Shown: positions 1 to 16,737, numbered from the stretch's first letter. The stretch is 64,000 nt of DNA from Bacteroidetes bacterium B1(2017) (GCA_002256395.1 NKJG01000002.1:209098-273097), one strand, 5' to 3'. Notes: generated by a model from the letters alone, not told the origin. Program-made: numbers and translations.

Positions 1-3000
1 TTCAATAGCAAGTATTTCCTTACCCATAAGGTCAATCAGTTTTAGGGTTGAACTCGATTTCGAATTTGTGTTTATTGAAATACTCGTATTTGTAGGGTTA
101 GGATAAACCGAAATGCTTGGCTCAATGAATTCTTCACTTGATAAGCCTGTAGAATGAGGCCTATTATTGCTTATCCAAATGCTAAACCTATTATTACCAA
201 ACGAGGCTGTATCTGAAGTTACATTGAATGATTTTATCAAAGGTTCTCCATTTAGTAGTTGAGTTTCGGTATGCGTGTATTTATCTAATAAAAATACTTG
301 GTAGAAATTAGGAAGACTTAGGCTTTCAACCTTTATAGTGTAGTTTCCTTGGGTGGCTGAACCTAAGCCTAGCGGAAGCTCTTTTTCACTATTATCTTCA
401 ATATTAGCAAGTGTGTTAATAGCATATTTCTTATTGTTTACATCATAGGAATAAATATTTACACCACTAGCATTTCCCATTTTTTCGGCATCTGCATCTT
501 CGTCAAATAAATCGGTTTTGTTTCGGTTAAATATAATTAAATGTTCATCCGATTTAGAGTTACTATTACTAAGGGTTAATCTAATTTCAAAGGGTTTATT
601 TCCCTTAAACATATTCGATGCAGCACTATTTGTTTTAGCAGCCTCTGTAACAGAAAGGATAGGGGATGCTGCATTTGCTTTTACAAAAAATGCTTGTCCA
701 GATGCAATAATATTTGTACCACCATTGGTTCCACCCGATCCTGTAACATAAGTTGCATATCTATCGTTGGCTGGATCAAAAATCCAAGTAGTTCCCAAAA
801 CATTTGTCTTCGTCCAACTTGCCTGATCCCAATCAATAGCGCATGGGTAAGGGTTTCCAACTAAATTCCATCCATCACCATTTAACGCATTGTAAGTAAC
901 AGCAAAAGTATGGTCTCCTGTTTTAACTGTACCACTCGCACTTAATGTTACATCAATGGGTGTATTGTTAGTTCCATCCAATAAGCCACATCCTTGGCTT
1001 CTATTACCTCTTATATAAACATTATAACCTGTTCCTGCAGTTAAGTTAGTAGAGCCAGTATTTGGGATGCTTGTCCAGGCGTTGGTATATACTGTGGCAC
1101 CACTAATATTAGGAGTGGTTGCAACAGGAGTTGCTGTTGCTTCATTAAATGTAAGCATACTTCCGTTATTATTAGTAGAAGCATCAAATCCATTTGAATG
1201 TGCTGTTAAGCTTGGGCAAGCAGTTCCACCAGAACCAGAACCAGTTATATAAATTTGTTGTTGCCAAGATGAGGCAATGGTAGGACCAGAGCTAAAAGGA
1301 GCCGCAAGATTTCTGTATTTTCTTCCAGATGTAGCAGATGGAATATAGCGTTCTACGGTCACATTTCCTGTAATAGAACCACTTGAACCAATAGAGGCAG
1401 TTCCAGTATTATCTGATTTTAAAGTTAATAGTCCGGCTGTGGTCAAGGTTCCGCTAAATGTTATTTGGCCACCAGCAGAAACAGATTTCATACCTGCACC
1501 ACTTATGGTAATATTTACATAAGCCCTAGGTGTTACTGTTTGAGCCGATGCAGAGGTATATTCAATAGTTGAGCCAGAGCCTAACGTAATAGTAGGTGTA
1601 TTAGAAGTACTAATTGTAGTGCTTGTACTGCCGCTAAATCCTTCTGTTTTCGATGTCTTTAAAATTCCATTTATGGTAAAGGTAGCAGACGCACCTGAAG
1701 CAATAAGTTGATTATTTGCAGCATCTAAAATACCACCACTTGCAGCAACAGTTAAGTTTGTAGATGCACCTAAATTTAAGTTGCCAACTAAGGTTGCAGA
1801 AGTAGAAGAACTAATAGTAATACCATTTGTGTTTGTTAAGGTTAATGATGTTCCGCCATTTGTTCCTAATTGAGCGCTAGTTCCTGTAATACTCCATACT
1901 CCTGTTCCAGATGCAGTCATTGCATTGGTTCCACCCAAACCAACAATTCCATATTTAAATGTTTTTGTACTATTACCTGTCCAACCTAAAGTTACCCCGC
2001 TTGCAAGTTCAACCCTGCCATTAAATGTAGTTTGAGTGCCAGCTCCCAAAGAAGCAATGGTTTGTCCAAATCTAAAAATTGGAATTTCTGTGGTTACATT
2101 AGGGAAGTAGGTAACACCTGATGTAGATGGTGAAGAAGATAAATTATACAATAAAATACCACCCGTTTCATAAACATGAGTAGAAGCATTTACGCCAGCA
2201 TTATTAGCAGTTAATCCAGTAGATTCAACACTTAGAATTCCACCGGTTTTAATTCTAATGTTTGAACTAGCAGTATAGGTAAAAGTACTTACAGTGTAAT
2301 TTACTCTTCCACCTGATTCAATACTAATATCATCGCCCGTTCCATTATTAACTGTCATTGCAGCAGAAACTATTAAAATTCCTCCACTTTGAACCACAAC
2401 CTCATCTACAGTAGCTGTTGCAGAAACAGTAACCGTATGGCCGTTTTGAATAGTTATTGTACTATTTGAGCTACTTGGTAAATCTGCAGAAAGTGTTACT
2501 GTTGCATATGTAGAACCACCATTTGCCGATCTTTCCCATGTTTCGCTACCAGAAGTTACTCCATTCCAATTTCCAGTGCGTAATGAGCGATAAATATAAC
2601 TTGCAGGACCCGCATTAATATCAAAACTAGAGCTTGTTACATCCCAGTCAAGAGTAGAAGTTCTTTCGGCATTTAAAGTTAAGGTAGTTCCTGTAACAGT
2701 ATGTGTTAAGCCAGCAAAAGTAGCTAAACCAGAACTAGCTGCCACATCAATAGGTGAACCTGTTAAGGTTCCAGTTGATGTAATTCTAATGGAGCTTGTA
2801 AAATCTAAATCTCTATTTCCATTCCCATCATTTGCACTAACTGTTACATCTGTCATAGCTACATTGCTAGTTGTATTAGCAGGTTGAGCAACAAATGCTA
2901 AAGCTGTTGCAGTAACTTCTAATCTATTCACATCGACGCTTGTAGAAGAGGCTGCAGCCCCAGCACTAGCTGATGCAAAACCAGATAGAGTAGCTGTTGA

Positions 3001-5925: not shown

Positions 5926-6208
5926 ATACTATTTTTTATTTTTGATTTCAGTTACTTTAGAGTTAAAATCAAAATCTTACTACTTAACTCGGGGTAAAAG
6001 TCATCTCACTACTTCAACTAAACATCATCCTAATGTTTCGTTTATGTTAATGAAAAAAAATGACTTCATACAGGTGTATTTTATATCCTTCAAAGGACGC
6101 ATACCCCAAAATAATTTGCAAGCAATAGCCATCAACTAAATCCAGTAAACCGGATTTAATTTTAGTTTTAGAAAATTAAAAATGCTTAAGATGCCTAATG
6201 GGCGTAGG

Positions 6209-7450
6209 TTACAGAGTTTGGCTCGAACCCATTTCTTGTATAGCTAAATAAGCCATAAGTCCAGACCCAAGAGCTAATGCGTCTTCATCAATATCAAAAG
6301 TAGGGGTATGCACACCCGAAATAATACCTCTTGATTCGTTCCTTGTTCCTAATCTATAAAAACACGCAGGTGCAACTTGTGAGTAATATGAAAAATCTTC
6401 GGCAGCCATCCAAATATCTAAATCTAACACATTTTCTATACCAAGATATTCTTGCGCAGCAGTTTTTGCTCTAGCTGTAACTTCTGGGTTGTTTTTAAGA
6501 AACGGATATCCTTTTCTAATTTCAAAATCAACAGAACCGCCAAATCCTTCAGCAATACTAGTAGCTGTTCTTAGCATCAATTCATGTGCTTTTGCTCGCC
6601 AGTTTTCGTCAAGAGTTCTAAAGGTTCCTTCTAAATAAACCTCATTGGGTATAACATTAGTAGCTCCATTGGCTATTACTTTTCCAAAGCTTAATACACT
6701 TGGAATAATAGGATTACTTTGTCTACTTACCAATTGCTGCAAAGCTGTAATCATTTGTGCTGTAATTGCAATTGGGTCAATACATAAATGAGGCATGGCA
6801 CCATGACCACCTTTTCCTTTTACTGTAACATATAATTCATCAGTGCTTGCCATATATAAACCACTTCTAAAACCTACCTTACCAACAGGTATAAGTGGCA
6901 TTACGTGCTGACCCAAAATTGTGTTAACAGTAGGGTTTTCAAGAATACCTTCCTGTATCATTAAGCTTGCACCGCCAGGAAGTTTTTCTTCTCCAGGTTG
7001 AAATATAAGTTTAAATGTGCCTTCAAAAAGATCTTTATGATCCATCAATAATTTAGCAACGCCCAATAAACAAGTTGTATGAACATCATGGCCGCATGCA
7101 TGCATTACTCCGTGGTTCTTTGATTTATATTCCACCTCATTGGCTTCAATTATTGGAAGGGCATCCATATCGGCGCGCAGGGCAATGGTTTTAAAGGAAG
7201 GATTTTTTCCTTCAATTAATACTTCCAATCCAGTTACTGCCATTTCCTTTATTTGAGTAATTCCCATTGCCTCTAACTGGGCCCTCACATAGGCAACAGT
7301 TTCAAATTCTTTAAATGAAAGTTCTGGATGACTATGGATATGCCTGCGAATGGTAATTAATTGGTCAGAAAGTGAATTTGCTTGTGATTTAATGCTTGCT
7401 AGTATGCTCATAACTAAAGCAAAAGAAATCATAAAACTCCATTTTACCAA
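6209..7450 (-). CDS. Peptidase M20D-family amidohydrolase (aminoacylase / hippurate-hydrolase-like), secreted
   Basis: 413 aa with an N-terminal signal peptide. It carries the M20 metal-binding motifs HACGHD and MDALP and the dimerisation-domain pattern. Confidence 0.8.
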   Translation of the reverse strand: MVKWSFMISFALVMSILASIKSQANSLSDQLITIRRHIHSHPELSFKEFETVAYVRAQLEAMGITQIKEMAVTGLEVLIEGKNPSFKTIALRADMDALPIIEANEVEYKSKNHGVMHACGHDVHTTCLLGVAKLLMDHKDLFEGTFKLIFQPGEEKLPGGASLMIQEGILENPTVNTILGQHVMPLIPVGKVGFRSGLYMASTDELYVTVKGKGGHGAMPHLCIDPIAITAQMITALQQLVSRQSNPIIPSVLSFGKVIANGATNVIPNEVYLEGTFRTLDENWRAKAHELMLRTATSIAEGFGGSVDFEIRKGYPFLKNNPEVTARAKTAAQEYLGIENVLDLDIWMAAEDFSYYSQVAPACFYRLGTRNESRGIISGVHTPTFDIDEDALALGSGLMAYLAIQEMGSSQTL

Positions 7451-7541
7451 AGACTGACATTATTCATGTAGTTTCAATCGAATGCTTACATTTGATTTGT
7501 CGTTTAAACCTACATAAATTACTAATTCATAAGTAAAGAGT

Positions 7542-7790
7542 ATGCAACTAAATAAAAACATCGCCGTGAGTGAAAACGGATTTATTTTCAACCCGGTTAG
7601 TGGTGATTCATTTTCAACCAACCCAATTGGTCAAGAAATTATTAGGTTAATGAAGGATCAAAAGGATAGAAAAGAAATTACAAAAATTCTGGCAGATAAG
7701 TATGCTGCCGATGATGCCACTATTGAAAAAGATTTAAGTGATTTTTTTCAAATGTTATTGTCGTACCAATTAATAAACGACCATGAATAG
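7542..7790 (+). CDS. PqqD-like small protein (RiPP recognition element fold)
   Basis: 82 aa with a PqqD-type pattern (NIAVSENGFIFNPVSGDSFSTNPIGQEIIRLM...ILADKY.....IEKDLSDFFQML..QLI). It ends in ...DHE, a C-terminal Glu. Its stop overlaps the next ORF's start (ATGAATAG). Confidence 0.6.
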   Translation: MQLNKNIAVSENGFIFNPVSGDSFSTNPIGQEIIRLMKDQKDRKEITKILADKYAADDATIEKDLSDFFQMLLSYQLINDHE

Positions 7791-8832
7791 GCGCAAAATA
7801 ACCGTTGCCGTTTCTGGATTAAATAATATTGATAGTCCAGGCCCAGGTATACCCGTTATTAGAGCATTAAAAGAAAGTACAGAGTTTGATGTTCGAATAA
7901 TTGGTTTGAGTTACGAAACTCTTGAACCGGGATTATATATGCACGATTTGGTTGATAAATCTTATTCTATTCCATTGCCTTCTTCTGGTATGGATAGCTT
8001 ATTGGTGCGTTTAGAATATATACATTCGAGAGAAAAGTTAGATGTTATTATCCCAAATTTTGATGCCGAATTGCATAGTTTTATTAAGCTTGGACCTATT
8101 CTAAAATCAAGTTATAATATCGCTACCTTCATGCCAGATCTAGAAACATTTGAATCGCGACATAAGTCAGTTCTGTATGAATTTGGTGAAAAGAATGAGG
8201 TAAAAGTGCCTAAAGCGAAAATGATTTATTCACCTGCTGAAATAGGAGCAATAGGTCAAGAACTAGGTTACCCTTTAGTTGTAAAAGGTAAATACTATGA
8301 TGCAAGTATTGCGGCAACTCCAGAGCAAGCTGTGAACTATTTTCATAAAATTGCCAATAAATGGGGACTTCCAATTATCCTTCAAGAATTTGTTTCGGGT
8401 AATGAGGTAAATGTTACTGCAATAGGCGATGGAAATGGAAATTGTATTGGAGCTGTTCCTATGCGTAAGTTATATATTACGGATAAAGGAAAGGCTTGGG
8501 CAGGTATTTCATTATTAGATGAGGAGCTTATAAAAATAGCTAATCGTGTAATTGCAAATTCTAAATGGCGCGGAGGTTGTGAACTTGAATTTATAAAATC
8601 AAAAGAAGGAGAGTATTACCTATTAGAAATGAATCCTCGTTTTCCAGCTTGGGTTTATTTAGCTGTTGGTTGTGGTCAGAACCACCCCGAAGCACTTGTG
8701 AAATTGGCACTAGGCGAAGATGTTAAACCCTATGAAACCTATGAAAGCGGGAAGCTCTTTGTTCGCTATTCGTTTGATCAAATAGTTAGCCTTCAAGAAT
8801 ATGAAAAAATTTCAACCTTGGGCGAACTATAA
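7783..8832 (+). CDS. ATP-grasp domain protein (CPSase/PylC-like carboxylate-amine ligase)
   Basis: 349 aa with a pre-ATP-grasp N-domain. It has a GYPLVVKG ATP-binding region and the E(L/M)NPRF motif typical of CPSase/biotin-carboxylase-type ATP-grasp enzymes. It overlaps the PqqD-like gene by 8 nt. Confidence 0.75.
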   Translation: MNRRKITVAVSGLNNIDSPGPGIPVIRALKESTEFDVRIIGLSYETLEPGLYMHDLVDKSYSIPLPSSGMDSLLVRLEYIHSREKLDVIIPNFDAELHSFIKLGPILKSSYNIATFMPDLETFESRHKSVLYEFGEKNEVKVPKAKMIYSPAEIGAIGQELGYPLVVKGKYYDASIAATPEQAVNYFHKIANKWGLPIILQEFVSGNEVNVTAIGDGNGNCIGAVPMRKLYITDKGKAWAGISLLDEELIKIANRVIANSKWRGGCELEFIKSKEGEYYLLEMNPRFPAWVYLAVGCGQNHPEALVKLALGEDVKPYETYESGKLFVRYSFDQIVSLQEYEKISTLGEL

Positions 8833-8893
8833 AAAATACTACCGACATAAAATCATTTAAATAAACATTAAAAAACTTTCAATTTCTATACAT

Positions 8894-10252
8894 ATGGCAA
8901 AGTTAAGTTATGAGCGTCCAGTTATTCAAAAGTTAAATACTGGAAGTATGAATAAATTTGGTACCCGCACAGAATATGCTCCGGTTACCCATATAGAAGG
9001 TGTGGCTGTTAAAGATATTATTGCAGAATATGGTTCGCCAGTTTTTGTTATTAGCGAGCAGCAAATACGAAGGAATTATCAGCAAGCTGTTAGAGCGTTT
9101 AAAACCAGATATCCTAAGGTTCAATTTGCCTGGAGTTACAAAACAAATTACATGAATGCGGTTTGTAATGTGTTTCATCAAGAAGGTTCATGGGCAGAGG
9201 TTGTATCCATTTTTGAATATAAAAAAGCCATAGGTAATGGCGTTCCAGGAAATAAAATTATTTTTAATGGTCCCGATAAATCGGAGGAGGATTTAATACT
9301 TGCGGTTAAAAATAAATCGCTTATTCATATTGATCATTTCGACGAGCTATATATGTTAATTGAAGTTGTTCAGAACCTAAAAATGAAGGCTTCAGTTGCC
9401 ATTCGTGTGAATATGGATGTAGGCGTATATCCAATGTGGGATCGCTTTGGATTTAACTATGAAAATGGCCAAGCTTGGAATGCTATAAATAAAATTATGA
9501 GTCAGCCAGAGCTAGAATTAAACGGTTTGCATTGTCATATTGGAACCTATATGTTAACCTCTGCAGCCTACGCAACTGCGGCTTGGAAGCTGTGCGATTT
9601 GGCTATTAACATAAAGTCTAAATGGAATAAAATAATCCAATACCTTGATTTGGGTGGTGGCTTTGCCTCAGCTAATACGTTGAAAGGTAGTTACCTTCAG
9701 GGGCCAGATATAATTCCAAGTATGGAAGATTATGCAGAAGCAATTTCATCAACCATCCTAAACTTTGGTTTCAAACCGAATGAATTGCCTACCCTGTTTT
9801 TAGAAACTGGCAGAGCTTTAATTGATGATGCAGGCTATCTTTTAGGTTCGGTAATTGCCACCAAACGCTTAAGCGATGGTCGTCGTGCCACCATTATGGA
9901 TTTTGGTGTGAACCTATTGTTTACTGCTTTCTGGTATAACCACAAAATTTCACCTGCACAAGAATTCTCCCACCATACAGAAGATATGGTAGTTTACGGG
10001 CCACTTTGCATGAATATTGATTGTATTAGAGAGAGTGTAAACCTACCATTATTAAGCAAAGGCGATCAAGTGGTGGTTCATAAAGTAGGAGCATACAACA
10101 TGACTCAATGGATGCAGTTTATTCAAATGCGCCCTAATATTGTTATGGTTGATGCTAAGCAGCAAGTTCATCTTATTCGTCATAAAGAATCGGTTGAAAC
10201 CATGTTGCAATATGAGCATATGCCTGCTCATCTTGAAAAGTTTGAGTTGTAG
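8894..10252 (+). CDS. PLP-dependent decarboxylase, Orn/DAP/Arg decarboxylase family 2 (alanine-racemase-like TIM barrel)
   Basis: 452 aa. It carries the family motifs DLGGGF and HCHIGT (HxHxGS-like), and the length matches DapDC/ODC-type decarboxylases. Confidence 0.75.
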   Translation: MAKLSYERPVIQKLNTGSMNKFGTRTEYAPVTHIEGVAVKDIIAEYGSPVFVISEQQIRRNYQQAVRAFKTRYPKVQFAWSYKTNYMNAVCNVFHQEGSWAEVVSIFEYKKAIGNGVPGNKIIFNGPDKSEEDLILAVKNKSLIHIDHFDELYMLIEVVQNLKMKASVAIRVNMDVGVYPMWDRFGFNYENGQAWNAINKIMSQPELELNGLHCHIGTYMLTSAAYATAAWKLCDLAINIKSKWNKIIQYLDLGGGFASANTLKGSYLQGPDIIPSMEDYAEAISSTILNFGFKPNELPTLFLETGRALIDDAGYLLGSVIATKRLSDGRRATIMDFGVNLLFTAFWYNHKISPAQEFSHHTEDMVVYGPLCMNIDCIRESVNLPLLSKGDQVVVHKVGAYNMTQWMQFIQMRPNIVMVDAKQQVHLIRHKESVETMLQYEHMPAHLEKFEL

Positions 10253-10296
10253 AATTTGAACTTTCGAAAAATTAATAGTAAGATGCAATTTGAATT

Positions 10297-12486
10297 TTGA
10301 ACATGAAAAAAGAACTTAATTGGCTATATTTTTTGGATACTGTACTGAACAGTTATAGCCAAATATTTTTTTCTTTAAACAAGCTATTTGCTAGCACTAT
10401 ACTTTTGGTAACATTTTTTGATCCAAAGGTTGGGTTATTTGGTCTAGTATCTGTTTTGCTAGTGAACCTAATGGCCTTTGCCTTTGGATTTAATAGAAAA
10501 GAAATAAGAGAAGGTATTTTTGGCTTTAATGCCTTGCTATTTGGATTGGCCATGGGTTTTAGATTCGAGATAAACGGAGCATTCCTTGTTTTGTTTTTTG
10601 TTTCGAACCTAAGCTTATTAGTTACAACAGCCGTCTTTAAGGGTAGTTTTGGTAAGGTACAATTGCCCTTTTTAAGTTTCCCGTTTTTACTAAGCTATTG
10701 GATAGTTTGTCTTGCCGTTAGTAGCTTAAGTAATATTCATTTGGCTGCGCCTGTGGTTTATTCTGAAATAGGAGTGCCTGGAGTTCAAAGTTTTTTTGAG
10801 ACTCTAGTGCATAGTTTGGATACTGTTTCAATGCCTGTATTAATTAAAATTTTCTTCAAAACTTTGGCTGCAACATTTTTTATTTCATCGGTTTTAGGTG
10901 GTTTATTAATTGCTATTTCTTTGTTTTTATTTTCGCGTATAACCTTCTCCCTTGCTGTGTTTGGGTTTACTGCGGCATTTTATGTGTATGATATTTTTGG
11001 TGCAGATATTTATCAACTTTCAGATAATATGGTTGGGTCGAACTATATCTTTTTTGCTATTGCGATAGGTGGCTTTTACCTCATTCCAAATTTGTATTCG
11101 TATGCAAGTAGTTTGGTTTTGGTACCCGTTTTATTATTAATGCAAATTGCCTTTGATAAATTATTTACTGGTTTTGAACTTAAAACCTTTACCCTTGCAT
11201 TTAGTGTTTTAACCTGTATCTTTTTATATGCCCTTCATCAAAGATGGATGCATAAATTTTTACACCTTGTTACCATTCAATATTATTCGGCCGAAAAAAC
11301 AGTTTATAAATATTTAAATGCCTTAAGTAGATTCAATCAAGCACACTTAAAGAAATTTGCTTTGCCTTTTTGGGGTGAGTGGCAGGTAAGCCAAGCATAT
11401 GATGGTAAAATAACTCATTTGGGCGATTGGAGTAAGGCTTTAGATTTTGTGGTGGTGGATGAAAAGTTAAAAACCTATAGAGAACCTGGACTTCATCTAA
11501 ATGATTTTTATTGCTATAATAAACCTGTTTTAGCTCCTGCCGATGGATATGTATATGCTATTTTTAACCATATAGATGATAATGAAATTGGGGTGGTTGA
11601 TACCGAAAAAAATTGGGGAAATAGTATCCTTATAAATCATTTGGATGGGGTGTTTTCACAAATAAGCCATCTTAAAAAGGACTCTTTTAAAGTAGCAGTT
11701 GGTGACTTTGTACAAAAGGGAACTTTATTGGCAGCATGCGGCAGCAGTGGGCGTTCACCAGAGCCTCATATGCATTTCCAGCTTCAAACAACCCCAACCT
11801 TAGGGGCAAAAACCTTAGCTTATCCCTTGGCCTATTACTTAGAACTTGGAATTACTAAAGAATGGGAGTTAAAACAATTTGAAGTACCCAAACAAGATGT
11901 AATCATTTCAAATGTTATGCAAGAAAAGCTATTGCATGATGCGTTTGATTGGATGCCTGGTAAACAATTTCATTTCGTAATTGAGGGTAAATCTGATTTA
12001 ATTGAATGGGAGGTTTTTACAGATGAATACAATAGATTATACCTTTTTGAACCTAAAACAAACAGCTATGCCTATTTTGTAAACGATGGCACTCGCTTTT
12101 ATTTCACCGACTTTGAAGGAAGTAGAAAGAGTAGTTTGTTTCAATTATACACTAGTTGCTATTCAGTATTATTAGGTGTATATCCAAAAATAAATTTAGG
12201 AGACAAGCTACCATTGATTCATTTTAATCCGCCTATTTTAATTTGGTTTCAAGATGTTTTGGCTCCATTTTATTTATTTACGGAAGCACGTTTTTCAAGT
12301 AAAATTAGAAAGGTAGACCAATTATTAGCCCCACAACGAATAGAAATTGAAAGTAATGTGGAGGCACGTTTATTAAATCAGAAGTTTAAAAGCAGCACCT
12401 ATTCTATTGTTATTACAGAAAAAGGTGTTTCAGAATTAACATTACTTAATGGCCCTAAAACAGAAAAATGGATATGCGTAGATTAA
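10297..12486 (+). CDS. Polytopic membrane protein: N-terminal urea-transporter (UT)-like domain fused to C-terminal M23 (LytM) metallopeptidase domain
   Basis: 729 aa. The N-terminal ~330 aa are polytopic with UT-family-like motifs (SQIFFSLNKLFAS..., GIFGFNALLFGLAMGF). The C-terminus carries the M23 signature (HLDGVFSQISHL...GSSGRSPEPHMHFQL, i.e. the HxxxD...HxH arrangement). Confidence 0.7.
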   Translation: MNMKKELNWLYFLDTVLNSYSQIFFSLNKLFASTILLVTFFDPKVGLFGLVSVLLVNLMAFAFGFNRKEIREGIFGFNALLFGLAMGFRFEINGAFLVLFFVSNLSLLVTTAVFKGSFGKVQLPFLSFPFLLSYWIVCLAVSSLSNIHLAAPVVYSEIGVPGVQSFFETLVHSLDTVSMPVLIKIFFKTLAATFFISSVLGGLLIAISLFLFSRITFSLAVFGFTAAFYVYDIFGADIYQLSDNMVGSNYIFFAIAIGGFYLIPNLYSYASSLVLVPVLLLMQIAFDKLFTGFELKTFTLAFSVLTCIFLYALHQRWMHKFLHLVTIQYYSAEKTVYKYLNALSRFNQAHLKKFALPFWGEWQVSQAYDGKITHLGDWSKALDFVVVDEKLKTYREPGLHLNDFYCYNKPVLAPADGYVYAIFNHIDDNEIGVVDTEKNWGNSILINHLDGVFSQISHLKKDSFKVAVGDFVQKGTLLAACGSSGRSPEPHMHFQLQTTPTLGAKTLAYPLAYYLELGITKEWELKQFEVPKQDVIISNVMQEKLLHDAFDWMPGKQFHFVIEGKSDLIEWEVFTDEYNRLYLFEPKTNSYAYFVNDGTRFYFTDFEGSRKSSLFQLYTSCYSVLLGVYPKINLGDKLPLIHFNPPILIWFQDVLAPFYLFTEARFSSKIRKVDQLLAPQRIEIESNVEARLLNQKFKSSTYSIVITEKGVSELTLLNGPKTEKWICVD

Positions 12487-13802
12487 TATTTTTTCTTTTC
12501 ATTTGGCCCGTCTTAATAAACGCTCAACCACTTACCTACACTAGTGTTGAGGTTAAATCTTTAGAGTATTACAATGATTTTGAGTATAAAAAATTAACGA
12601 AACTAGGTGAGGAGGCTTTGGATCAAAAAATTGATTTTTACGACCTACGAGTGCGAATGGGAATTGCTTATTATAAAATGAACAAATTTGAACCAGCCAC
12701 CATTCATTTTATGAAAGCAGTTGAAATGAATCCATCTGAACCTGATATTTTATCCTATGCCTATAATTGCTTGCTAATTACTGCTCAATTTAATAGAGCA
12801 AATGCATTCCTAATTCAATATCCAACTACAAGTGCAAGCATAAAACCAAAATCAACAGGTTTAGGAAGCGTTGAAATAGAAACCGGTTTAATCAATACGA
12901 ATTTAGCATCTAGTTATTCGGGAGAGATTTTGCGAGAATCAGGTTCTAATTATGCCTCTGGTAATTTCTTTTCTAAAATGGCCTATACTCGTGTATATGC
13001 TGAGGGATTAGCCTCACCCGACCTTAGATGGCATTTAGGTGGAAATATTTTTCAATCAACCCACCTGAGTAAGCTTGAGTTTTTTGATAAGAATACAGAG
13101 GTAGAAAAGTCGAGCTTAAATTATCAATTCAATTTTGGGTTTACTAAATTGCTTGCACACGGATGGCAAACAGGTATTGGCATTGCTTATTATCGTCAAA
13201 ACTTCCCATTCCCCTACGTTTCATCAACTATTCAGCCACCACCTCCAAATTCGGTATTTAAGGATTCCATTGAAACATCAAACGCTGTTAGTATTAGCGC
13301 TCTTATTTCAAAACGCATGAAATATATAGAACCTATTTTAGTGCTTAATTACGGCGATTTCGATCTTAAAAATAGATTTCAAGCAGAATTAGGAATAACA
13401 ACTTTCCCATTGGGTCATCAACAATTATACACCTACACGAGTGGCTCGTTTATTAGAAGTGATGGGAGTAATTCATATGCCTTTAATCAAAAAATTGGCT
13501 ATTCATTTAAGAATTCAATCTCCCTTGAGGGAAGCTTTTTAAAAGGTTCTTTAGATAATTATATGTGCAATATGGGCTTCTTAACCTTAAATACATTTGA
13601 CCCTTTGAAATGGTCGGCTGGAGCCGATTTAAATTACAGAATAAAGAGGTGGATTATTACACCTGGCTATAGAATTCAAAAAAGAGCTGGATCTTATGAA
13701 AGCGAATCTGCTCCAATTGGTCCTGTTCAACCAACTATAAAGACGAACAATTTTTCTTATTCAACAAACTTATTTTTTATCACACTAAAATGTCAATTTT
13801 AA
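12468..13802 (+). CDS. Secreted TPR-like N-domain + predicted outer-membrane beta-barrel protein
   Basis: 444 aa. The start overlaps the upstream stop by 19 nt. It has a signal peptide and TPR-like helices at ~40-110. The C-terminal ~300 aa show alternating-hydrophobic beta-strand character and end in a terminal Phe (..LKCQF), typical of OMP barrels. Confidence 0.4.
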   Translation: MDMRRLIFFLFIWPVLINAQPLTYTSVEVKSLEYYNDFEYKKLTKLGEEALDQKIDFYDLRVRMGIAYYKMNKFEPATIHFMKAVEMNPSEPDILSYAYNCLLITAQFNRANAFLIQYPTTSASIKPKSTGLGSVEIETGLINTNLASSYSGEILRESGSNYASGNFFSKMAYTRVYAEGLASPDLRWHLGGNIFQSTHLSKLEFFDKNTEVEKSSLNYQFNFGFTKLLAHGWQTGIGIAYYRQNFPFPYVSSTIQPPPPNSVFKDSIETSNAVSISALISKRMKYIEPILVLNYGDFDLKNRFQAELGITTFPLGHQQLYTYTSGSFIRSDGSNSYAFNQKIGYSFKNSISLEGSFLKGSLDNYMCNMGFLTLNTFDPLKWSAGADLNYRIKRWIITPGYRIQKRAGSYESESAPIGPVQPTIKTNNFSYSTNLFFITLKCQF

Positions 13803-14401
13803 AACAACTAGTTCTTGGAATGCTTCTAGTGGCAACCATTAACGCTAACGCCCAAAACTTAAGTGAGATTTTTGCTAAGAGTTATGCTGCAGAAAAAAAC
13901 GCTAACTATACCGAAGCAATTGCAGCTATGCAAGCACAAACGTATACCTCTTCATATGAAGTAAATTTACGATTAGGTTGGCTATATTATGCCGATAAAA
14001 AGCATAGCGAATCTGTAGCTTATTATCAAAAAGCAATTGCCTTAAAACCATTGGCTACAGAGCCATTATGGGGGATAATTTATCCTTTAAGTGTGCAAGA
14101 AAAGTGGACAGGAGTGGAGCAAGCATATAAAGATATTTTAAAGCTTGATCCAAGAAATTCAAAAGCCAATTACTACCTAGGTTCGATCTACTTTTATAGA
14201 AAAGATTATACCACTGCTAAAAAATATTTGCAAGAAGTTATTGCTCTTTATCCATTTGATAAAGATGCCAATTTACTTTACGGCTGGAGTCAATATTATC
14301 TTGGAAATACAAGTGAGGCAAAGAATGCCTTTAACCATGTTTTAAATAGTAAACCAGATGATTCCTCGGCTAAAGAAGGGTTGGCACTGTTAAATAAGTA
14401 G
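13790..14401 (+). CDS. Secreted tetratricopeptide-repeat protein
   Basis: 203 aa with a signal peptide (..ATINANAQ). It has multiple TPR-like W/Y-rich helical repeats. It overlaps the upstream gene by 13 nt. Confidence 0.6.
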   Translation: MSILKQLVLGMLLVATINANAQNLSEIFAKSYAAEKNANYTEAIAAMQAQTYTSSYEVNLRLGWLYYADKKHSESVAYYQKAIALKPLATEPLWGIIYPLSVQEKWTGVEQAYKDILKLDPRNSKANYYLGSIYFYRKDYTTAKKYLQEVIALYPFDKDANLLYGWSQYYLGNTSEAKNAFNHVLNSKPDDSSAKEGLALLNK

Positions 14402-14429
14402 ATTTGGTTTTATTTCTTATCTTTGGAAG

Positions 14430-14816
14430 GTGAAAGATTTCAAGAAATATTATGTCATTCCTGCACCTCCAGAAGATGTGTATTTGGCTCTTACCAATGA
14501 ACCAACTATGATGCTTTGGACAGGTGATCAGGCTAGTTTTGTAGCAGAGGTAGGTTCAGAATTTTCTATGTGGGATGGAAGTATTGTTGGAAAAAATTTA
14601 GAACTTGAGCTTAATAAAAAAATTGTTCAAGAATGGTTTTTTGGAGAGGAACCAACCGAAACTCCAAGTATTGTAACCCTTAAGTTGCATGTTCATAACC
14701 AAGGAACATCAATTGAGGTAAGGCATACTAATATTCCCGACGAAGAATATGATGATATTATCGATGGTTGGACAAACAATTATATGGCAGAACTCTATGA
14801 GTTTTACGATGAATAA
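14430..14816 (+). CDS. SRPBCC-superfamily small protein (Aha1/AHSA1-like)
   Basis: 128 aa. Length and pattern fit the Bet v1-like/AHSA1 fold. It is the last gene of the same operon, 28 nt after the TPR gene. Confidence 0.45.
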   Translation: MKDFKKYYVIPAPPEDVYLALTNEPTMMLWTGDQASFVAEVGSEFSMWDGSIVGKNLELELNKKIVQEWFFGEEPTETPSIVTLKLHVHNQGTSIEVRHTNIPDEEYDDIIDGWTNNYMAELYEFYDE

Positions 14817-14822
14817 TTGGTA

Positions 14823-15458
14823 TTAATTATTAATTTCTCCCTTGCCTTCACGAATTACAATTGGGTCATCCGAAGTGCAATCAATAATGGTTGAGGGGAT
14901 ATTTCCACCCGAACCACCGTCGATAACCATATCCACTTGGTGTTCAAATTTTTCATGAATCTCCTCAGGATCGGTCATATATTCAATTATTTCATCCTCA
15001 TGATGAATGGTTGAAACAACAAGCGGCGAACCTAATTCCTTTATAATGGTTTGTGCAATGGTATTATCTGGAACCCTTATACCAATTGTTTTCTTGTTGC
15101 CAGCAAATAGCTTGCTTACATGGTTATTAGCCCTTAAAATAAAGGTAAAGGCACCAGGCAAATTATTTTTTAACAGCCTAAATACATTTTTATCAATAGC
15201 AGCTGTTACATCAGAAATATTTGCCAAATCAGAACATAATAGGGAGTAATTTACCTTTTCTGGTTTCTTTCCCATAATCCTGCTCATGCGCTCTATTCCT
15301 TTTCTCGAATCCATTCTACAAGCCATAGCATAAATCGTATCCGTAGGAATAATTATTACCCCATCCGAATTCAAAACATCAAGCACCTTTTTTAGGTCGC
15401 GTGGATTTGGATTTTTTGTATGTAGTGCGAGTAGCATGATATAAATGAAAAAAGGCAC
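14823..15458 (-). CDS. tsaC: L-threonylcarbamoyladenylate synthase (TsaC/YrdC family)
   Basis: 211 aa. It carries the YrdC-domain motif ..IIIPTDTIYAMAC.. (the PTDTVYGL equivalent). Confidence 0.75.
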   Translation of the reverse strand: MPFFIYIMLLALHTKNPNPRDLKKVLDVLNSDGVIIIPTDTIYAMACRMDSRKGIERMSRIMGKKPEKVNYSLLCSDLANISDVTAAIDKNVFRLLKNNLPGAFTFILRANNHVSKLFAGNKKTIGIRVPDNTIAQTIIKELGSPLVVSTIHHEDEIIEYMTDPEEIHEKFEHQVDMVIDGGSGGNIPSTIIDCTSDDPIVIREGKGEINN

Positions 15459-15516
15459 TGAGTAATGAAAAGGAAGTAATCCTCACTCATTATTCAGTGC
15501 CTAATTTAGCTAAAAA

Positions 15517-16737
15517 TTATAATTTTCCTGCAACAGCTTGCTGAACTAAATCAGCAGCTTCTTTTAATACAATAGCAGAGTATACTTTCAATCCCGACTC
15601 ATCAATTAATAATTTCGCAGCTTCGGCATTGGTACCTTGCAAACGAACAATAATTGGAACTGGAATATTGCCAATGCTCTTATAAGCATCAACAACACCT
15701 TGTGCAACACGGTCGCAACGTACAATTCCACCAAAAATATTAATTAAAATAGCCTTTACATTAGGGTCTTTCAAGATAATTCTAAAACCAGCTTCTACAG
15801 TTTTTGCATTGGCAGATCCACCCACATCAAGGAAGTTTGCAGGATCGCCACCAGATAATTTAATAATATCCATAGTAGCCATTGCTAAACCGGCACCATT
15901 AACCATACAACCAACGTTTCCGTCTAATTTAACAAAGTTAAGATTGTATTCAGCTGCTTCAACTTCGGTAGCATCTTCTTCAGATGTATCGCGCATTGCT
16001 TCGTAATCTGGATGACGGTATAAAGCGTTGTCATCAATATTTACTTTCCCATCAACTGCAATAATCTTATTGTCTGAAGTGCGCAATACAGGGTTAATTT
16101 CAAACATGGCCGAATCAGATTTGTCGTATGCTTTATATAAAGCGGTAACAAATTTCACCATTTGTTTAAATGCCTCGCCTTCGCAACCTAAGTTAAAAGC
16201 AATCTTACGAGCTTGAAAACCTTGTAAACCCACTTTAGGATCAATGGTTTCTTTATGAATCAAATGTGGAGTATGTTCTGCAACATGCTCAATGTCCATT
16301 CCACCTTCGGTAGAGTAAACAATAATGTTTTTACTTTGACCTCTATCAAGCATTACACTCATGTAATACTCCTTAGTTTCGCCAGGACCTGGATAGTATA
16401 CGTCTTGGGCTACCAAAACTTTACTTACTAGTTTTCCTTTAGGGCCAGTTTGTATTGTAACCAAAGTTCCTCCAAGGATATTTCCTGCAATTTCTTTTGC
16501 CTTATCGGCATTTTTTGCAACGGCAACACCTCTTTGTTCTTTTCCAACAATATTACCTTTCCCACGGCCACCAGCATGAATTTGGGCTTTTATAACCACA
16601 AAATCACTTCCAAATTGATCTTTCAATTTTAATGCAGCAGCATGGGCTTCATCAGCAGTCTCGGCAACTATGCCTTCCTGAACGGCAACGCCAAATGATT
16701 TTAAAATCTGCTTGGCTTGGTATTCATGAATATTCAT
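15517..16737 (-). CDS. sucC: Succinate--CoA ligase (ADP-forming) beta subunit
   Basis: 406 aa. The N-terminus MNIHEYQAKQIL... and the full-length pattern match SucC. Confidence 0.9.
   Translation of the reverse strand: MNIHEYQAKQILKSFGVAVQEGIVAETADEAHAAALKLKDQFGSDFVVIKAQIHAGGRGKGNIVGKEQRGVAVAKNADKAKEIAGNILGGTLVTIQTGPKGKLVSKVLVAQDVYYPGPGETKEYYMSVMLDRGQSKNIIVYSTEGGMDIEHVAEHTPHLIHKETIDPKVGLQGFQARKIAFNLGCEGEAFKQMVKFVTALYKAYDKSDSAMFEINPVLRTSDNKIIAVDGKVNIDDNALYRHPDYEAMRDTSEEDATEVEAAEYNLNFVKLDGNVGCMVNGAGLAMATMDIIKLSGGDPANFLDVGGSANAKTVEAGFRIILKDPNVKAILINIFGGIVRCDRVAQGVVDAYKSIGNIPVPIIVRLQGTNAEAAKLLIDESGLKVYSAIVLKEAADLVQQAVAGKL

Follow-up and report, generated by a model that had tools for sequence, protein, structure and literature searches.

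Background

Several biosynthetic pathways are known in which an amino acid is decarboxylated only after it has been joined to a partner. In the butirosin (BtrJ, BtrK and BtrI) and closthioamide (CtaD, CtaF and CtaE) systems, an ATP-grasp enzyme loads Glu/Asp onto a carrier and a decarboxylase of the Orn/DAP/Arg family converts it in situ, the closthioamide ATP-grasp/decarboxylase cycle being iterative (PMC7183216). BtrI is a carrier of 87 aa, and FigC, SbnH, AcsE, MccE and BtrK group in one clade, every member of which decarboxylates an amino acid that is already conjugated, FigC being an N-citrylornithine decarboxylase (PMC7857480). Ligation followed by decarboxylation of the conjugate is likewise found in the FigA/FigC (FslA/FslC) rhizoferrin pathway of Francisella and with SbnH and AcsE, the ligase being an NIS synthetase and not an ATP-grasp enzyme. 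The Btr and Cta systems have been reported in the Firmicutes and Actinobacteria as variable secondary-metabolite clusters.

Among envelope proteins, the urea transporters (dvUT, UT-A and UT-B; PF03253) are passive, bidirectional channels that normally serve uptake coupled to cytoplasmic consumption. PgaA, BcsC, PelB, AlgK/AlgE and Slam/type 11 proteins have periplasmic tetratricopeptide repeats (TPRs) at the N-terminus and a beta-barrel at the C-terminus, the barrel of Slam proteins having 14 strands. Peptidases of the M23/LytM type such as lysostaphin, LytM, Pgp3, MepM and EnvC are periplasmic or secreted. The UT-B termini are intracellular, and a fusion of UT with M23 has been noted earlier only as a domain combination (PMC12998343). 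The locus described below joins an ATP-grasp and decarboxylase set to a membrane protein with a urea-channel-like domain and a peptidase, and to a small outer-membrane barrel, in one operon of the Bacteroidota.

Genomic data and locus sets

The locus belongs to Bacteroidetes bacterium B1(2017) (GCA_002256395.1 NKJG01000002.1:209098-273097); the window is the whole 64,000-nt stretch that was analysed. Comparisons were made with 80 species-level genome loci and with 80 metagenome loci seeded with the ATP-grasp gene, the denominators for the latter being those loci whose contig had room for the gene in question.

Organisation of the locus

The seven plus-strand ORFs (g1 to g7) claimed in the initial annotation are all present exactly as described, with spacings of -8, +61, +44, -19, -13 and +28 nt in order, and all its domain assignments are upheld by Pfam. 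Its start coordinate needs revision, as 7451 marks the end of the divergent M20 gene and g1 begins at 7542. The features are as follows.

6209..7450, minus strand: divergent M20 amidohydrolase, signal-peptide-like N-terminus (Pfam M20; NCBIfam TIGR01891, 362 bits against a cutoff of 154)
7487..7494, plus strand: candidate Bacteroidota-type -7 promoter box, TACATTTG
7542..7790, plus strand: g1, PqqD-fold protein, 82 aa (Pfam PqqD, 4e-12); 8-nt overlap with g2
7783..8832, plus strand: g2, ATP-grasp ligase, 349 aa (Pfam ATPgrasp_Ter, 3e-10; ATP-grasp_3, CPSase_L_D2, Dala_Dala_lig_C)
8894..10252, plus strand: g3, PLP decarboxylase of alanine-racemase fold, 452 aa (Pfam Orn_Arg_deC_N, 1e-29; Orn_DAP_Arg_deC)
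10297..12486, plus strand: g4, inner-membrane protein, 729 aa (Pfam UT, 1e-47; Peptidase_M23, 4e-14)
10321..11235, plus strand: g4 UT channel domain, residues 9-313
11359..11901, plus strand: M23 domain of g4, residues about 355-535, predicted to face the cytoplasm and to be active
11914..12483, plus strand: g4 C-terminal domain, residues 540-729, an antiparallel beta-sheet, curved, plus two or three helices
12468..13802, plus strand: g5, outer-membrane protein, 444 aa, signal peptide 1-19, C-terminal ...LKCQF
12537-12818, plus strand: three TPRs of g5, residues 24-117 (Pfam TPR; AlphaFold)
12858-13799, plus strand: 14-strand beta-barrel of g5, residues 131-444 (AlphaFold)
13790..14401, plus strand: g6, periplasmic TPR protein, 203 aa, signal peptide MSILKQLVLGMLLVATINANA followed by QN (several Pfam TPR families, to 2e-17)
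14430..14816, plus strand: g7, SRPBCC/AHSA1 protein, 128 aa (Pfam AHSA1, 5e-19)

Genes g1 to g6 overlap or lie 44-61 nt apart, with 28 nt before g7, and a divergent intergenic region of 91 nt separates g1 from the M20 gene. The candidate -7 box lies in this region, 48 nt ahead of the start codon of g1; on inspection of the sequence it is a weak match to TAnnTTTG, which we take to be the Bacteroidetes promoter -7 consensus. A sigma-70 scan gave no signal above background, and a riboswitch search found none, nor is a riboswitch or a polymerase gene conserved with the operon.

Conservation of a six-gene core

In the ATP-grasp-seeded metagenome loci with room for the respective gene, the PqqD-like g1 is present in 74/75, the decarboxylase g3 in 60/60, UT-M23 (g4) in 52/52, the TPR-barrel g5 in 33/38 and the TPR protein g6 in 38/38. 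The gene order of the window recurs in essentially every such locus with contig room and is collinear in about 35 of the 80 genome loci, which span Flavobacteriales, Chitinophagales, Sphingobacteriales, Cytophagales, Bacteroidales and Kapaibacterium; g6 is found beside UT-M23 in 73/80 genome loci. The arrangement is well beyond chance, and the genes make up a co-conserved functional unit, in agreement with the initial annotation; the operon is confined to a subset of the phylum. LytTR-type two-component regulators were observed immediately upstream in 16 loci.

The unit so conserved is smaller than the seven genes of the initial annotation. Downstream g7 was found only in the closest relatives of the window (L001, L003, L034, L037, L051 and L067; about 7/80 genome loci) and in 0/80 metagenome loci. 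The M20 gene is nearby in only about 7/80 genome loci and in 0/80 metagenome loci, and it is not adjacent in L034 and L037. Since both are co-located only in the closest relatives, the core consists of six genes, PqqD-like, ATP-grasp, PLP decarboxylase, UT-M23, TPR-barrel and periplasmic TPR; g7 is a lineage-specific downstream neighbour, and the M20 enzyme, which the initial annotation suggested could hydrolyse the same amide product, is a local neighbour outside the core.

In about half of the 80 genome loci, UT-M23, g5 and g6 are present but g1-g3 are not. In one sub-clade of the UT-M23 genes (59-97% mutual identity), termed type B here as against the type A set of the window, g1-g3 are absent and UT-M23 is adjoined by a divergent trio, whose products are a protein of 145 aa, an unrelated decarboxylase (fold-I, Orn/Lys/Arg) and an ATP-grasp enzyme assigned to PRK06524 (745 bits, cutoff 684). 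The order of g5 and g6 is swapped within the clade with the trio keeping its position (L040 and L054 compared with L004). Because the replacement is confined to one clade, it represents roughly one evolutionary event, and the finding that 0/52 ATP-grasp-seeded loci lack UT-M23 argues that type B genomes do not keep g2 elsewhere. An Acyl_transf_3 (OatA-like) gene was seen near several type B loci. In about 10/80 genome loci neither enzyme set is near UT-M23, g5 and g6, the contig mostly ending close upstream.

The cytoplasmic enzymes

The decarboxylase g3 is assigned by sequence to the clade of FigC, SbnH, AcsE, MccE, BtrK and DAPDC, and is not the primary-metabolism LysA, in line with the initial annotation: it scores 224 bits against the LysA model (cutoff 298), its best NCBIfam match is FslC (238 bits) and its best PDB match is 7kh2 (FigC/FslC, 1.9e-61), followed by M. 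jannaschii DAPDC (2.4e-46) and BtrK (1e-23). In the alignment, 'GPLCMNID' of g3 resembles 'GPSCMQHD' of FigC and differs from 'GGLCESSD' of DAPDC; this Cys-Met replaces an acidic residue that binds the free side-chain amine (PMC7857480). The Arg/Tyr specificity-helix residues of DAPDC are missing from g3, and so are the citrate-binding His357 and Arg387 of FigC. Since FigC is its nearest solved relative, its score falls below the LysA cutoff, the Cys-Met change is shared and the DAPDC Arg is lost, decarboxylation by g3 most likely follows ligation, its substrate being the conjugate, as with FigC, BtrK and CtaF, a logic absent from the initial annotation.

The ligase g2 (66-92% identical across Bacteroidota orders) retains the Mg-binding E-x-N motif ('LLEMNPR') and falls far below every curated cutoff, which sets it apart from the primary-metabolism PurK, as had been anticipated. 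In NCBIfam it matches nothing but 'CPS-like' models of the PRK12767 type, with scores far under their cutoffs, its best PDB match is 2pn1 at just 1.5e-6, and a faint match to cyanophycin synthetase was seen (E 0.003-0.007). By these profiles g2 represents an uncharacterised ATP-grasp family.

No Pfam family other than PqqD matches g1 even at E<=10, PP-binding included. N6, A8, S10, G13, F14, F16, P18, G21-D22-S23-F24, N27, G30, E63, D65, D68 and F69 are among the residues that never vary in a set of 91 unique sequences; an acidic tail is present in 87/91 and the final residue is variable. A peptide- or partner-binding subunit, or a carrier, is proposed; we know of no PqqD protein reported to carry a covalently attached group. 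A search of 88 loci for a precursor ORF within 2 kb turned up no conserved one, and g1 as the mark of a classical RiPP cluster was rejected on this ground.

Together, g1, g2 and g3 match the precedent of the Btr and Cta systems, in which the genes for an ATP-grasp and for an Orn/DAP/Arg-fold PLP decarboxylase acting post-attachment are accompanied by one for a small protein, about 80-90 aa long (PMC7183216, PMC7857480). They differ in that the small protein has the PqqD fold and is not a phosphopantetheinyl carrier, in that phosphopantetheinyl transferase, transacylase and downstream tailoring genes are absent, and in that the operon is highly conserved, belongs to the Bacteroidota and is tied to the envelope. 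Compared with FigA/FigC, the locus lacks a siderophore receptor, a TonB-dependent transporter and an MFS exporter.

The envelope components

The g4 protein, whose NCBI model starts two codons later (ATG at 10303, 727 aa), has four parts: a channel domain of the UT family, a linker helix, the M23 metallopeptidase and, at the C-terminus, a beta-rich domain that matches no Pfam family and is weakly similar to lipid-binding folds. The first-half UT signature is canonical ('LPFLSFPF') and the second is degenerate ('LKTFTLAF'). It further differs from the urea transporters in its fused, predicted cytoplasmic M23 and additional 190-aa domain, and in an operon that encodes biosynthetic enzymes and outer-membrane components and not urease. 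Beyond residue about 312 the protein has no hydrophobic segment, and Lys/Arg are abundant next to the membrane; the M23 and C-terminal domains, both situated past the final membrane helix, should by homology and charge bias face the cytoplasm, and a role of M23 as a periplasmic cell-wall hydrolase is therefore unlikely. All of 56 homologs keep H374, D383, H458, H491 and H493, and H458 and H491-x-H493 align with Pgp3 and lysostaphin, so that catalytic competence is predicted; the first zinc motif is non-canonical, H374 and D383 being eight residues apart in contrast to HxxxD. Mature peptidoglycan is an unlikely substrate.

For g5, the AlphaFold model (pLDDT 95.5), with signal peptide, three TPRs and 14 strands, bears out the prediction of a TPR and beta-barrel protein with a terminal Phe. 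The signal peptide and TPR families of g6 likewise agree with its periplasmic assignment. The g5 barrel is much closer to FadL, TodX, BamG, CymA, OmpG and PorV than to PelB or BcsC, and DUF560, the Slam family, gave no match even at E<=10.

Proposed function of the system

The reading that we favour, tentatively, is a cytoplasmic pathway in which a small amide with a terminal amine is built on an amino acid that is conjugated or tethered; M23 would release the amide, which would then leave through the UT pore and the barrel. In this scheme, g2 would join an amino acid by its side chain to an acceptor (amide or acyl linkage), both alpha groups, amino and carboxyl, staying free; the acceptor may be a small carboxylate or amine, a residue of g1 or a residue of a peptide held by g1. 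The alpha-carboxylate of the conjugate would then be stripped by g3, giving an N-acyl-diamine or omega-aminoacyl unit, possibly through repeated cycles. In the envelope, g4 would be a trimeric UT-type channel whose cytoplasmic mouth bears M23 and a beta domain of ligand-binding-like type; M23 may cut the product off a carrier or pro-form, the small amide would exit through the pore, and g6 and the g5 barrel would carry it across the periplasm and outer membrane. The outward direction is a proposal, UT channels themselves being passive and bidirectional.

Against this reading, g1 has a PqqD fold without a phosphopantetheine-carrier signature, the type B clade has no PqqD-like gene, and some genome loci have neither enzyme set nearby. 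UT pores are narrow and are known only for urea-like solutes. Since its second-half signature is degenerate, the UT domain of g4 might serve as a scaffold and form no channel.

An unlikely alternative is a RiPP-type system in which g1 shows a precursor peptide encoded elsewhere to g2 and g3, M23 serves as leader peptidase and export proceeds via g4/g5. Apart from the clear PqqD/RRE fold of g1, it could draw on the fusion of a predicted cytoplasmic peptidase to a membrane protein, comparable to peptidase-containing exporters, on the LytTR-type regulators and on MccE, a member of the g3 clade that acts on a peptide conjugate (PMC7857480); the lack of a conserved precursor ORF counts against the classical form.

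It is also improbable that the operon modifies or recycles the cell wall, g2 with its Ddl-like chemistry adding a dibasic amino acid to a peptidoglycan precursor, cytoplasmic or lipid-linked, at a carboxylate of the stem peptide. In that case g3 would yield a bound diamine, as with the cadaverine covalently linked to Selenomonas peptidoglycan, or act on peptide-bound meso-DAP, M23 would recognise or trim the stem peptide, and the TPR proteins and barrel would engage the modified wall. Peptidoglycan paralogues exist for each of the three enzyme families (Ddl, LysA and M23 endopeptidases), the g3 pocket suits an amino acid acylated on its distal group, and the OatA-like gene of type B loci and the weak lipid-binding likeness of g4 fit as well. 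However, the UT channel is left without a role, no Mur, lipid II or flippase gene is conserved in the locus, the operon occurs in only part of the phylum, and we know of no report of polyamine-linked peptidoglycan in the Bacteroidota.

Uptake, in which a small amide, urea-like or peptide-like nutrient or signal enters through g5 and the passive UT channel, is hydrolysed by M23 and is trapped or converted by g2/g3, seems still harder to sustain. It accords with the ordinary role of UT proteins, with the nearness of the g5 barrel to the uptake channels FadL, TodX, CymA and OmpG, and with the position of M23 exactly where an imported substrate would emerge; yet the genes conserved in the locus include no hydrolase, urease, permease or catabolic regulator, no riboswitch was found, and ATP-grasp ligases and FigC-clade decarboxylases are biosynthetic in all characterised cases cited (PMC7183216, PMC7857480).

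The model of the initial annotation, synthase-dependent export of a poly-amino-acid or other polymer by a RimK/cyanophycin synthetase-like g2 and a PgaA/BcsC/PelB/AlgE-like TPR-barrel pair, is very unlikely. The layout of a TPR-plus-barrel protein with a periplasmic TPR protein is real, ATP-grasp enzymes can iterate, as in the tri-beta-alanine of CtaD/CtaF (PMC7183216), and the faint cyanophycin synthetase match is consistent with it. Compared with such exporters, g5 has only three TPRs, its barrel is nearer the FadL group, and neither a polysaccharide synthase nor lipoprotein cargo is encoded nearby.

That an enzyme operon and an unrelated envelope operon adjoin by happenstance is highly improbable, for, despite the loci without g1-g3 and the strongly differing evolutionary rates of the halves (identities across genome loci of about 70-90% for g2 and g3, 43-53% for g4 and 23-34% for g5), UT-M23 accompanies g2 in 52/52 loci, genes overlap within each half, the g3-g4 gap is just 44 nt, and where g1-g3 are missing another decarboxylase and ATP-grasp pair adjoins UT-M23.

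No publication describes the operon and no described system resembles it, as the initial annotation had remarked in finding no characterised pathway of this composition. Rhizoferrin is made by two known routes, diamine first, or ligation and then decarboxylation (PMC7857480), and the pair of type A and type B loci parallels these. On the favoured reading of amide synthesis and release, g1 to g6, a unit maintained across hundreds of Bacteroidota species, would constitute one conserved system of the phylum with a cytoplasmic half and an envelope half.

Gene organisation and annotation of the locus

The locus is located on an 856,788-bp contig of the metagenome-assembled genome (MAG) 'Bacteroidetes bacterium B1(2017)', with a GC content of ~35% that is unchanged across the operon region. 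The seven plus-strand ORFs described in the initial annotation were all recovered, with spacings of -8, +61, +44, -19, -13 and +28 nt, and all of its domain predictions, including that for the divergent M20 gene, were confirmed by Pfam. The start coordinate required correction, as position 7451 is the base after the M20 gene; g1 begins at 7542 and is separated from the M20 gene by a 91-nt intergenic region. The features and their Pfam assignments are as follows:

6209-7450, - strand, divergent amidohydrolase gene (M20)
7542-7790, + strand, g1, PqqD-like protein (PqqD)
7783-8832, + strand, g2, ATP-grasp ligase (ATP-grasp)
8894-10252, + strand, g3, PLP decarboxylase (alanine-racemase-fold Orn/DAP/Arg decarboxylase)
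10297-12486, + strand, g4, UT-M23 membrane protein (UT and M23)
12468-13802, + strand, g5, TPR-barrel protein (TPR)
13790-14401, + strand, g6, periplasmic TPR protein with a signal peptide (TPR)
14430-14816, + strand, g7, SRPBCC protein (AHSA1/SRPBCC)

The NCBI model of g4 begins two codons downstream, with the ATG at 10303, giving a protein of 727 aa. The public protein names of the operon ('HPr-rel-A system PqqD family protein', 'biotin carboxylase', 'diaminopimelate decarboxylase', three entries of 'hypothetical protein' and 'ATPase') are generic or misleading.

Two other features of the window were observed. A giant minus-strand ORF of at least 1976 aa (1-5928) is cut off by the left edge of the window. 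Its product starts with a signal peptide, contains a C-terminal segment, '...VYPNPTNTSISI...', of the kind found in type IX secretion sorting domains, and is probably a very large T9SS-secreted surface protein. The M20/TIGR01891 amidohydrolase (6209-7450, - strand) carries a hydrophobic, signal-peptide-like N-terminus (MVKWSFMISFALVMSILASIKSQA...). Members of this family are usually cytoplasmic; this one may be exported.

Conservation of a six-gene unit

Over 1900 full-length homologues of g4 were found, of 712-745 aa, and all of them carry both UT and M23 domains. A scan for UT-M23 loci, with one genome per species, yielded at least 565 loci, of which 80, spread over the Bacteroidota, were retained; among the groups represented are Flavobacteriales, Chitinophagales, Sphingobacteriales, Cytophagales, Bacteroidales and Kapaibacterium. 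Gene content was examined by tblastn and ORF clustering. The envelope trio is universal among the 80 genome loci, with UT-M23 in 79, the g5 family in 71 and the g6 family in 73. In approximately 35 loci (type A) the genes for the PqqD-like protein, the ATP-grasp ligase and the decarboxylase lie directly upstream of UT-M23 in the same orientation, which is the layout of the window, and these loci cover the full diversity (pairwise g4 identity 40-100%, median 48%).

An independent metagenome scan seeded with the ATP-grasp gene provided another 80 loci, in which a gene was counted only where the contig had room for it. PqqD was present in 74/75, the decarboxylase in 60/60, UT-M23 in 52/52 and g6 in 38/38 loci, while g5 was detected by tblastn in 33/38, being in the remainder probably too divergent for this method. 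Neither M20 nor the SRPBCC gene g7 occurred in any of the 80 metagenome loci; they adjoin the operon only in the closest relatives of the window (L001, L003, L034, L037, L051 and L067). The absence of co-conservation, named in the initial annotation as a refuting outcome, is thus contradicted for g1-g6 and borne out for g7 and M20, which are neighbours confined to close relatives and are ruled out by co-occurrence as pathway members; the conserved unit comprises six genes.

Across orders, g2 and g3 are 66-93% identical, g4 43-53% and g5 23-34%; the high identity of the ATP-grasp ligase and the decarboxylase indicates that the operon is under strong purifying selection. Genes for an integrase, a BspA-type LRR protein, an AAA ATPase, a fatty-acid desaturase, a T9SS cargo, a thioesterase and a chorismate-binding enzyme are inserted in variant loci and were regarded as incidental. 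In several loci among L004, L013, L021, L022 and L043 the g6-type TPR gene is present, downstream of g5/g6, as a tandem duplicate or on both sides of g5. Organism labels are implausible in several of the public MAG records with the operon (L012, CAVXOV010000019.1; L021, L033, L034, L066 and L074): environmental bins are named 'Chryseobacterium gleum', 'Chitinophaga pinensis' or 'Flavobacterium psychrophilum', and another example is 'Candidatus Saccharibacteria'. The taxon names of such records are unfit for inferring distribution.

The gene immediately upstream of the operon varies by clade. In 16 loci it belongs to a LytS-type two-component pair and encodes the LytTR response regulator; 11 loci have an AraC-type regulator gene at this position, and 12 the gene of a small secreted repeat protein. 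The LytS-type histidine kinase (PF06580) and LytTR regulator genes lie directly 5' of the PqqD gene in L036 (5172-6877, + strand), with the same arrangement in L021, L045, L053, L057, L066, L070 and L081, among both Flavobacteriales-like and Chitinophagales-like loci; the LytS/LytTR and AraC-type genes are likely to be the regulators of the operon. The small secreted protein (~45-117 aa; L128, L129, L075, L117, L118, L123, L125 and L127) is encoded on the same strand as the PqqD gene, no more than 450 nt before it; full-length copies have a signal peptide, and the 'NFVDxNxNGICDxxE' repeats of the protein, joined by Gly/Arg-rich linkers, resemble EF-hand calcium loops. The 12 loci with this gene come from anaerobic-digester and fermentation metagenomes. 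No Rfam match, whether for a riboswitch, a leader RNA or another family, was obtained at E<=1 in window 6000-15600, nor at the gathering score in seven diverse loci. A role in anti-phage defence was discarded, as PADLOC gave no matches.

The decarboxylase

The initial annotation named a placement of g2 and g3 in primary-metabolism families such as PurK and LysA as a refuting outcome; g3 is not LysA. The protein scores 224.2 bits against the LysA model TIGR01048, below the curated equivalog cutoff of 297.9, and higher, at 238 bits, against the FslC model NF041039. Its best solved match is the N-citrylornithine decarboxylase FigC/FslC (7kh2, 1.9e-61), followed by the best diaminopimelate decarboxylase (DAPDC; 2.4e-46) and the butirosin enzyme BtrK (1e-23). 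In ODC, ADC and DAPDC an acidic residue beside the catalytic Cys binds the side-chain amine of the substrate, its place being taken by Met355 in FigC, and in DAPDC this residue and an Arg of the specificity helix hold meso-DAP by its distal amino and carboxyl groups (PMC7857480). Residue alignment of the catalytic-Cys stretch gives 'GPLCMNID' in g3, 'GPSCMQHD' in FigC and 'GGLCESSD' in DAPDC; thus, g3 has 'CMNID' where the M. jannaschii DAPDC has 'CESSD', and it shares the Cys-Met pair with FigC. The specificity helix reads 'LLFTAFWYNH' in g3 and 'MMRPAMYEAYHH' in M. jannaschii DAPDC; the DAPDC Arg is absent from g3, as it is from FigC.

FigC, SbnH, AcsE, MccE and BtrK group with DAPDC in one clade and decarboxylate amino acids that are already conjugated (PMC7857480). 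By match scores and residues g3 is nearer to FigC than to DAPDC, and it is probably an enzyme of this type, predicted to act on a conjugate rather than on a free amino acid. It is not FslC/FigC itself, since its score lies far below the cutoff of 500 and the citrate ligands His357 and Arg387 align with Ile and Gln. Because these ligands are lost and the specificity helix of g3 is also more aromatic, the partner group of the substrate would not be citrate and is probably less acidic.

The ATP-grasp ligase and the PqqD-like protein

The Mg-binding motif of g2 is intact, and the protein lies outside every curated family. Searches of Pfam and NCBIfam gave no graspetide or RimK-type matches, and there is no precursor nearby; a microviridin-type graspetide ligase was therefore rejected.

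A direct precedent for the pairing of an ATP-grasp ligase with a decarboxylase is provided by butirosin BtrI/J/K and closthioamide CtaE/D/F, in which Glu or Asp is first attached to a small carrier by the ligase and then converted by the decarboxylase while still bound, the cycle being iterative in the closthioamide pathway (PMC7183216). The g1 protein (82 aa) is similar in size to the BtrI carrier (87 aa). However, unlike these systems, no phosphopantetheinyl carrier is encoded with g2: g1 matches Pfam PqqD (4e-12), with weak matches to the lasso-peptide and PQQ PqqD models, PqqD is its sole match with no PP-binding signal even at E<=10, and no carrier gene occurs among the conserved ORF clusters of the genome loci. 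Its N-terminal half is nearly invariant in 91 sequences, including G21-D22-S23-F24. A cryptic ACP/PCP, suggested by this invariant GDSF motif, was rejected, since a PP-binding signal is lacking and GDSF falls on a beta-strand of the PqqD fold in the alignment. Of the 91 sequences, 87 have an acidic tail, but the last residue varies (E, D, A, N, K, G), which argues against a LysW-like carrier ligated at a C-terminal Glu; the version with a near-terminal Asp/Glu is weakened.

The envelope proteins

The AlphaFold model of g4 (pLDDT 86.5, pTM 0.76) consists of a UT helical bundle (residues 9-313), a linker helix, an M23 beta domain and a beta-rich C-terminal domain of ~190 residues. The UT fold is full-length and scores above the gathering cutoff of PF03253. 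Against the equivalog urea transporter TIGR03441 the protein obtains 91 bits, below the cutoff of 274.6. The UT halves (10297-11235) have diverged unequally: the first-half signature is canonical ('LPFLSFPF' vs 'VPALTAPF' in dvUT) and the second degenerate ('LKTFTLAF' vs 'MPALTWPF'), and the GFN motif is kept in the first half and reads 'GSN' in the second. The low score and the degenerate second signature led us to reject an equivalog urea transporter, and the unequal halves hint that the pore may be asymmetric or altered.

Beyond residue ~312 g4 has no hydrophobic segment, Lys, Arg and His are abundant in the juxtamembrane stretch, and the termini of UT-B are intracellular (PMC12998343); a cytoplasmic location is therefore predicted for the M23 and C-terminal domains. 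The M23 domain scores 53 bits against PF01551 (cutoff 28.7), and its catalytic His458 and His491-x-His493 align with Pgp3 and lysostaphin. The canonical HxxxD zinc motif is absent; H374 and D383, eight residues apart, are invariant in 56 homologues, together with H458, H491 and H493. The one paper found to mention the UT-M23 fusion lists it as a domain combination, without context or function (PMC12998343). A Slam-type (type 11 secretion) outer-membrane protein was rejected for g5, which has no DUF560 barrel domain.

Replacement of the enzyme genes in one sub-clade

In 36 loci forming a single sub-clade (type B; g4 identity 59-97%), PqqD, the g2-type ATP-grasp and the g3-type decarboxylase are absent, and a trio of other genes is oriented divergently from UT-M23 (L004, 4759-9702, - strand, and corresponding positions in ~36 loci, e.g. 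L005-L013, L019, L022, L040, L054).

Proteins of the type B trio
c3: 145 aa, highly conserved; no Pfam/NCBIfam family, VOC/glyoxalase-like by eye
Decarboxylase: 913 aa, fold-I Orn/Lys/Arg type (OKR_DC_1, 2e-79), N-terminal extension of ~280 aa
ATP-grasp: ~490 aa, uncharacterised PRK06524 (745 bits, cutoff 684), annotated 'biotin carboxylase'

Given its lack of a family match and VOC/glyoxalase-type appearance, c3 was not accepted as a PqqD analogue, and the type B ATP-grasp and g2 have only the Mg-binding motif in common. The order of g5 and g6 in this clade is inverted relative to the window, and the trio stays in place with either order. As no ATP-grasp-seeded locus lacked UT-M23 (52/52), type B genomes probably keep no g2 elsewhere. 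Two routes to rhizoferrin are known, in which a diamine is used directly or ornithine is ligated and then decarboxylated (PMC7857480), and the type B and type A enzyme sets parallel these two routes. Chance hardly explains why a second, unrelated pair of decarboxylase and ATP-grasp genes adjoins the same envelope trio, although the type B arrangement, being limited to a single clade, counts as one supporting event and not many.

Proposed pathway and alternative explanations

In the proposed pathway, which is the best-supported reading, g2 would join an amino acid via its side chain to an acceptor and g3 would decarboxylate the conjugate to an amine-terminated amide, while g1 would hold the substrate or organise the enzymes; the M23 domain at the channel mouth would free the product, and the small amide would cross via the UT pore, g6 and the g5 barrel. 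This three-step reading of ligation, decarboxylation, and release with export is tentative as a whole, and we place it somewhat short of an even chance. A bolder reading is a new, Bacteroidota-specific trans-envelope small-molecule system, in which g2 and g3 would build an amine-terminated amide or short oligo-amide on a non-phosphopantetheinyl carrier or scaffold of PqqD fold, M23 would free the product from it and a repurposed UT-fold channel would serve as the dedicated product conduit, with the enzyme cassette swappable, as in type B, and the UT-M23/TPR-barrel/TPR conduit constant; this we regard as speculative and unlikely.

The PqqD-like g1 has the RRE feature of RiPP clusters. However, a search for precursor ORFs of 18-90 aa within 2 kb in 88 loci found none conserved except g1 and its antisense shadow, and nothing was conserved in the 450 nt upstream of g1 in 98 loci; the operon is not a classical RiPP cluster, and a RiPP whose precursor is encoded elsewhere is unlikely. 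The modification or recycling of peptidoglycan precursors is as unlikely. Uptake and assimilation appears slightly less probable again. The export of a polymer, as proposed in the initial annotation from the TPR and barrel proteins, is doubtful to a greater degree. The 16-18-strand barrel, long TPR array and partner inner-membrane synthase of PgaA/BcsC/PelB/AlgE were not found, and g5 is not of the PgaA, BcsC or PelB type, with a barrel of the wrong size and no synthase. That the enzymes and envelope proteins are unrelated modules, merely neighbouring, is very improbable given the type B arrangement. The remaining probability falls to some other explanation.

Novelty and significance

The initial annotation knew of no characterised pathway of such composition, and full-text searches of the accessible literature found no description of the operon. 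Each known system considered fails at least one defining feature tested here.

Known systems and the features in which they fail
LysA: below cutoff, specificity residues lost
FslC: below cutoff, citrate ligands lost
BtrIJK, CtaDEF: no phosphopantetheinyl carrier
RiPP clusters: no precursor gene
Equivalog urea transporter: below cutoff, second signature degenerate
PgaA, BcsC, PelB: barrel size wrong, no synthase
Slam: no DUF560 domain

Its parts are members of known protein families, but the operon as a system is unmatched in the accessible literature, its function being wholly inferred.

Bacteroidota dominate gut, soil, freshwater and wastewater communities, yet large parts of their envelope biology and small-molecule chemistry have still to be worked out. 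The operon is present in at least several hundred species and, in view of this and its strong conservation, its product is probably physiologically important and not a sporadic secondary metabolite. If the proposed system is true, it would represent the first urea-transporter-family channel dedicated to a non-urea solute, the first cytoplasm-facing M23 peptidase coupled to a channel, the first PqqD-fold protein working without a ribosomal precursor peptide and a new way for a Gram-negative phylum to make amine-terminated amides independently of NRPSs, and would correct the recurrent misannotations 'diaminopimelate decarboxylase', 'biotin carboxylase' and 'urea transporter'.
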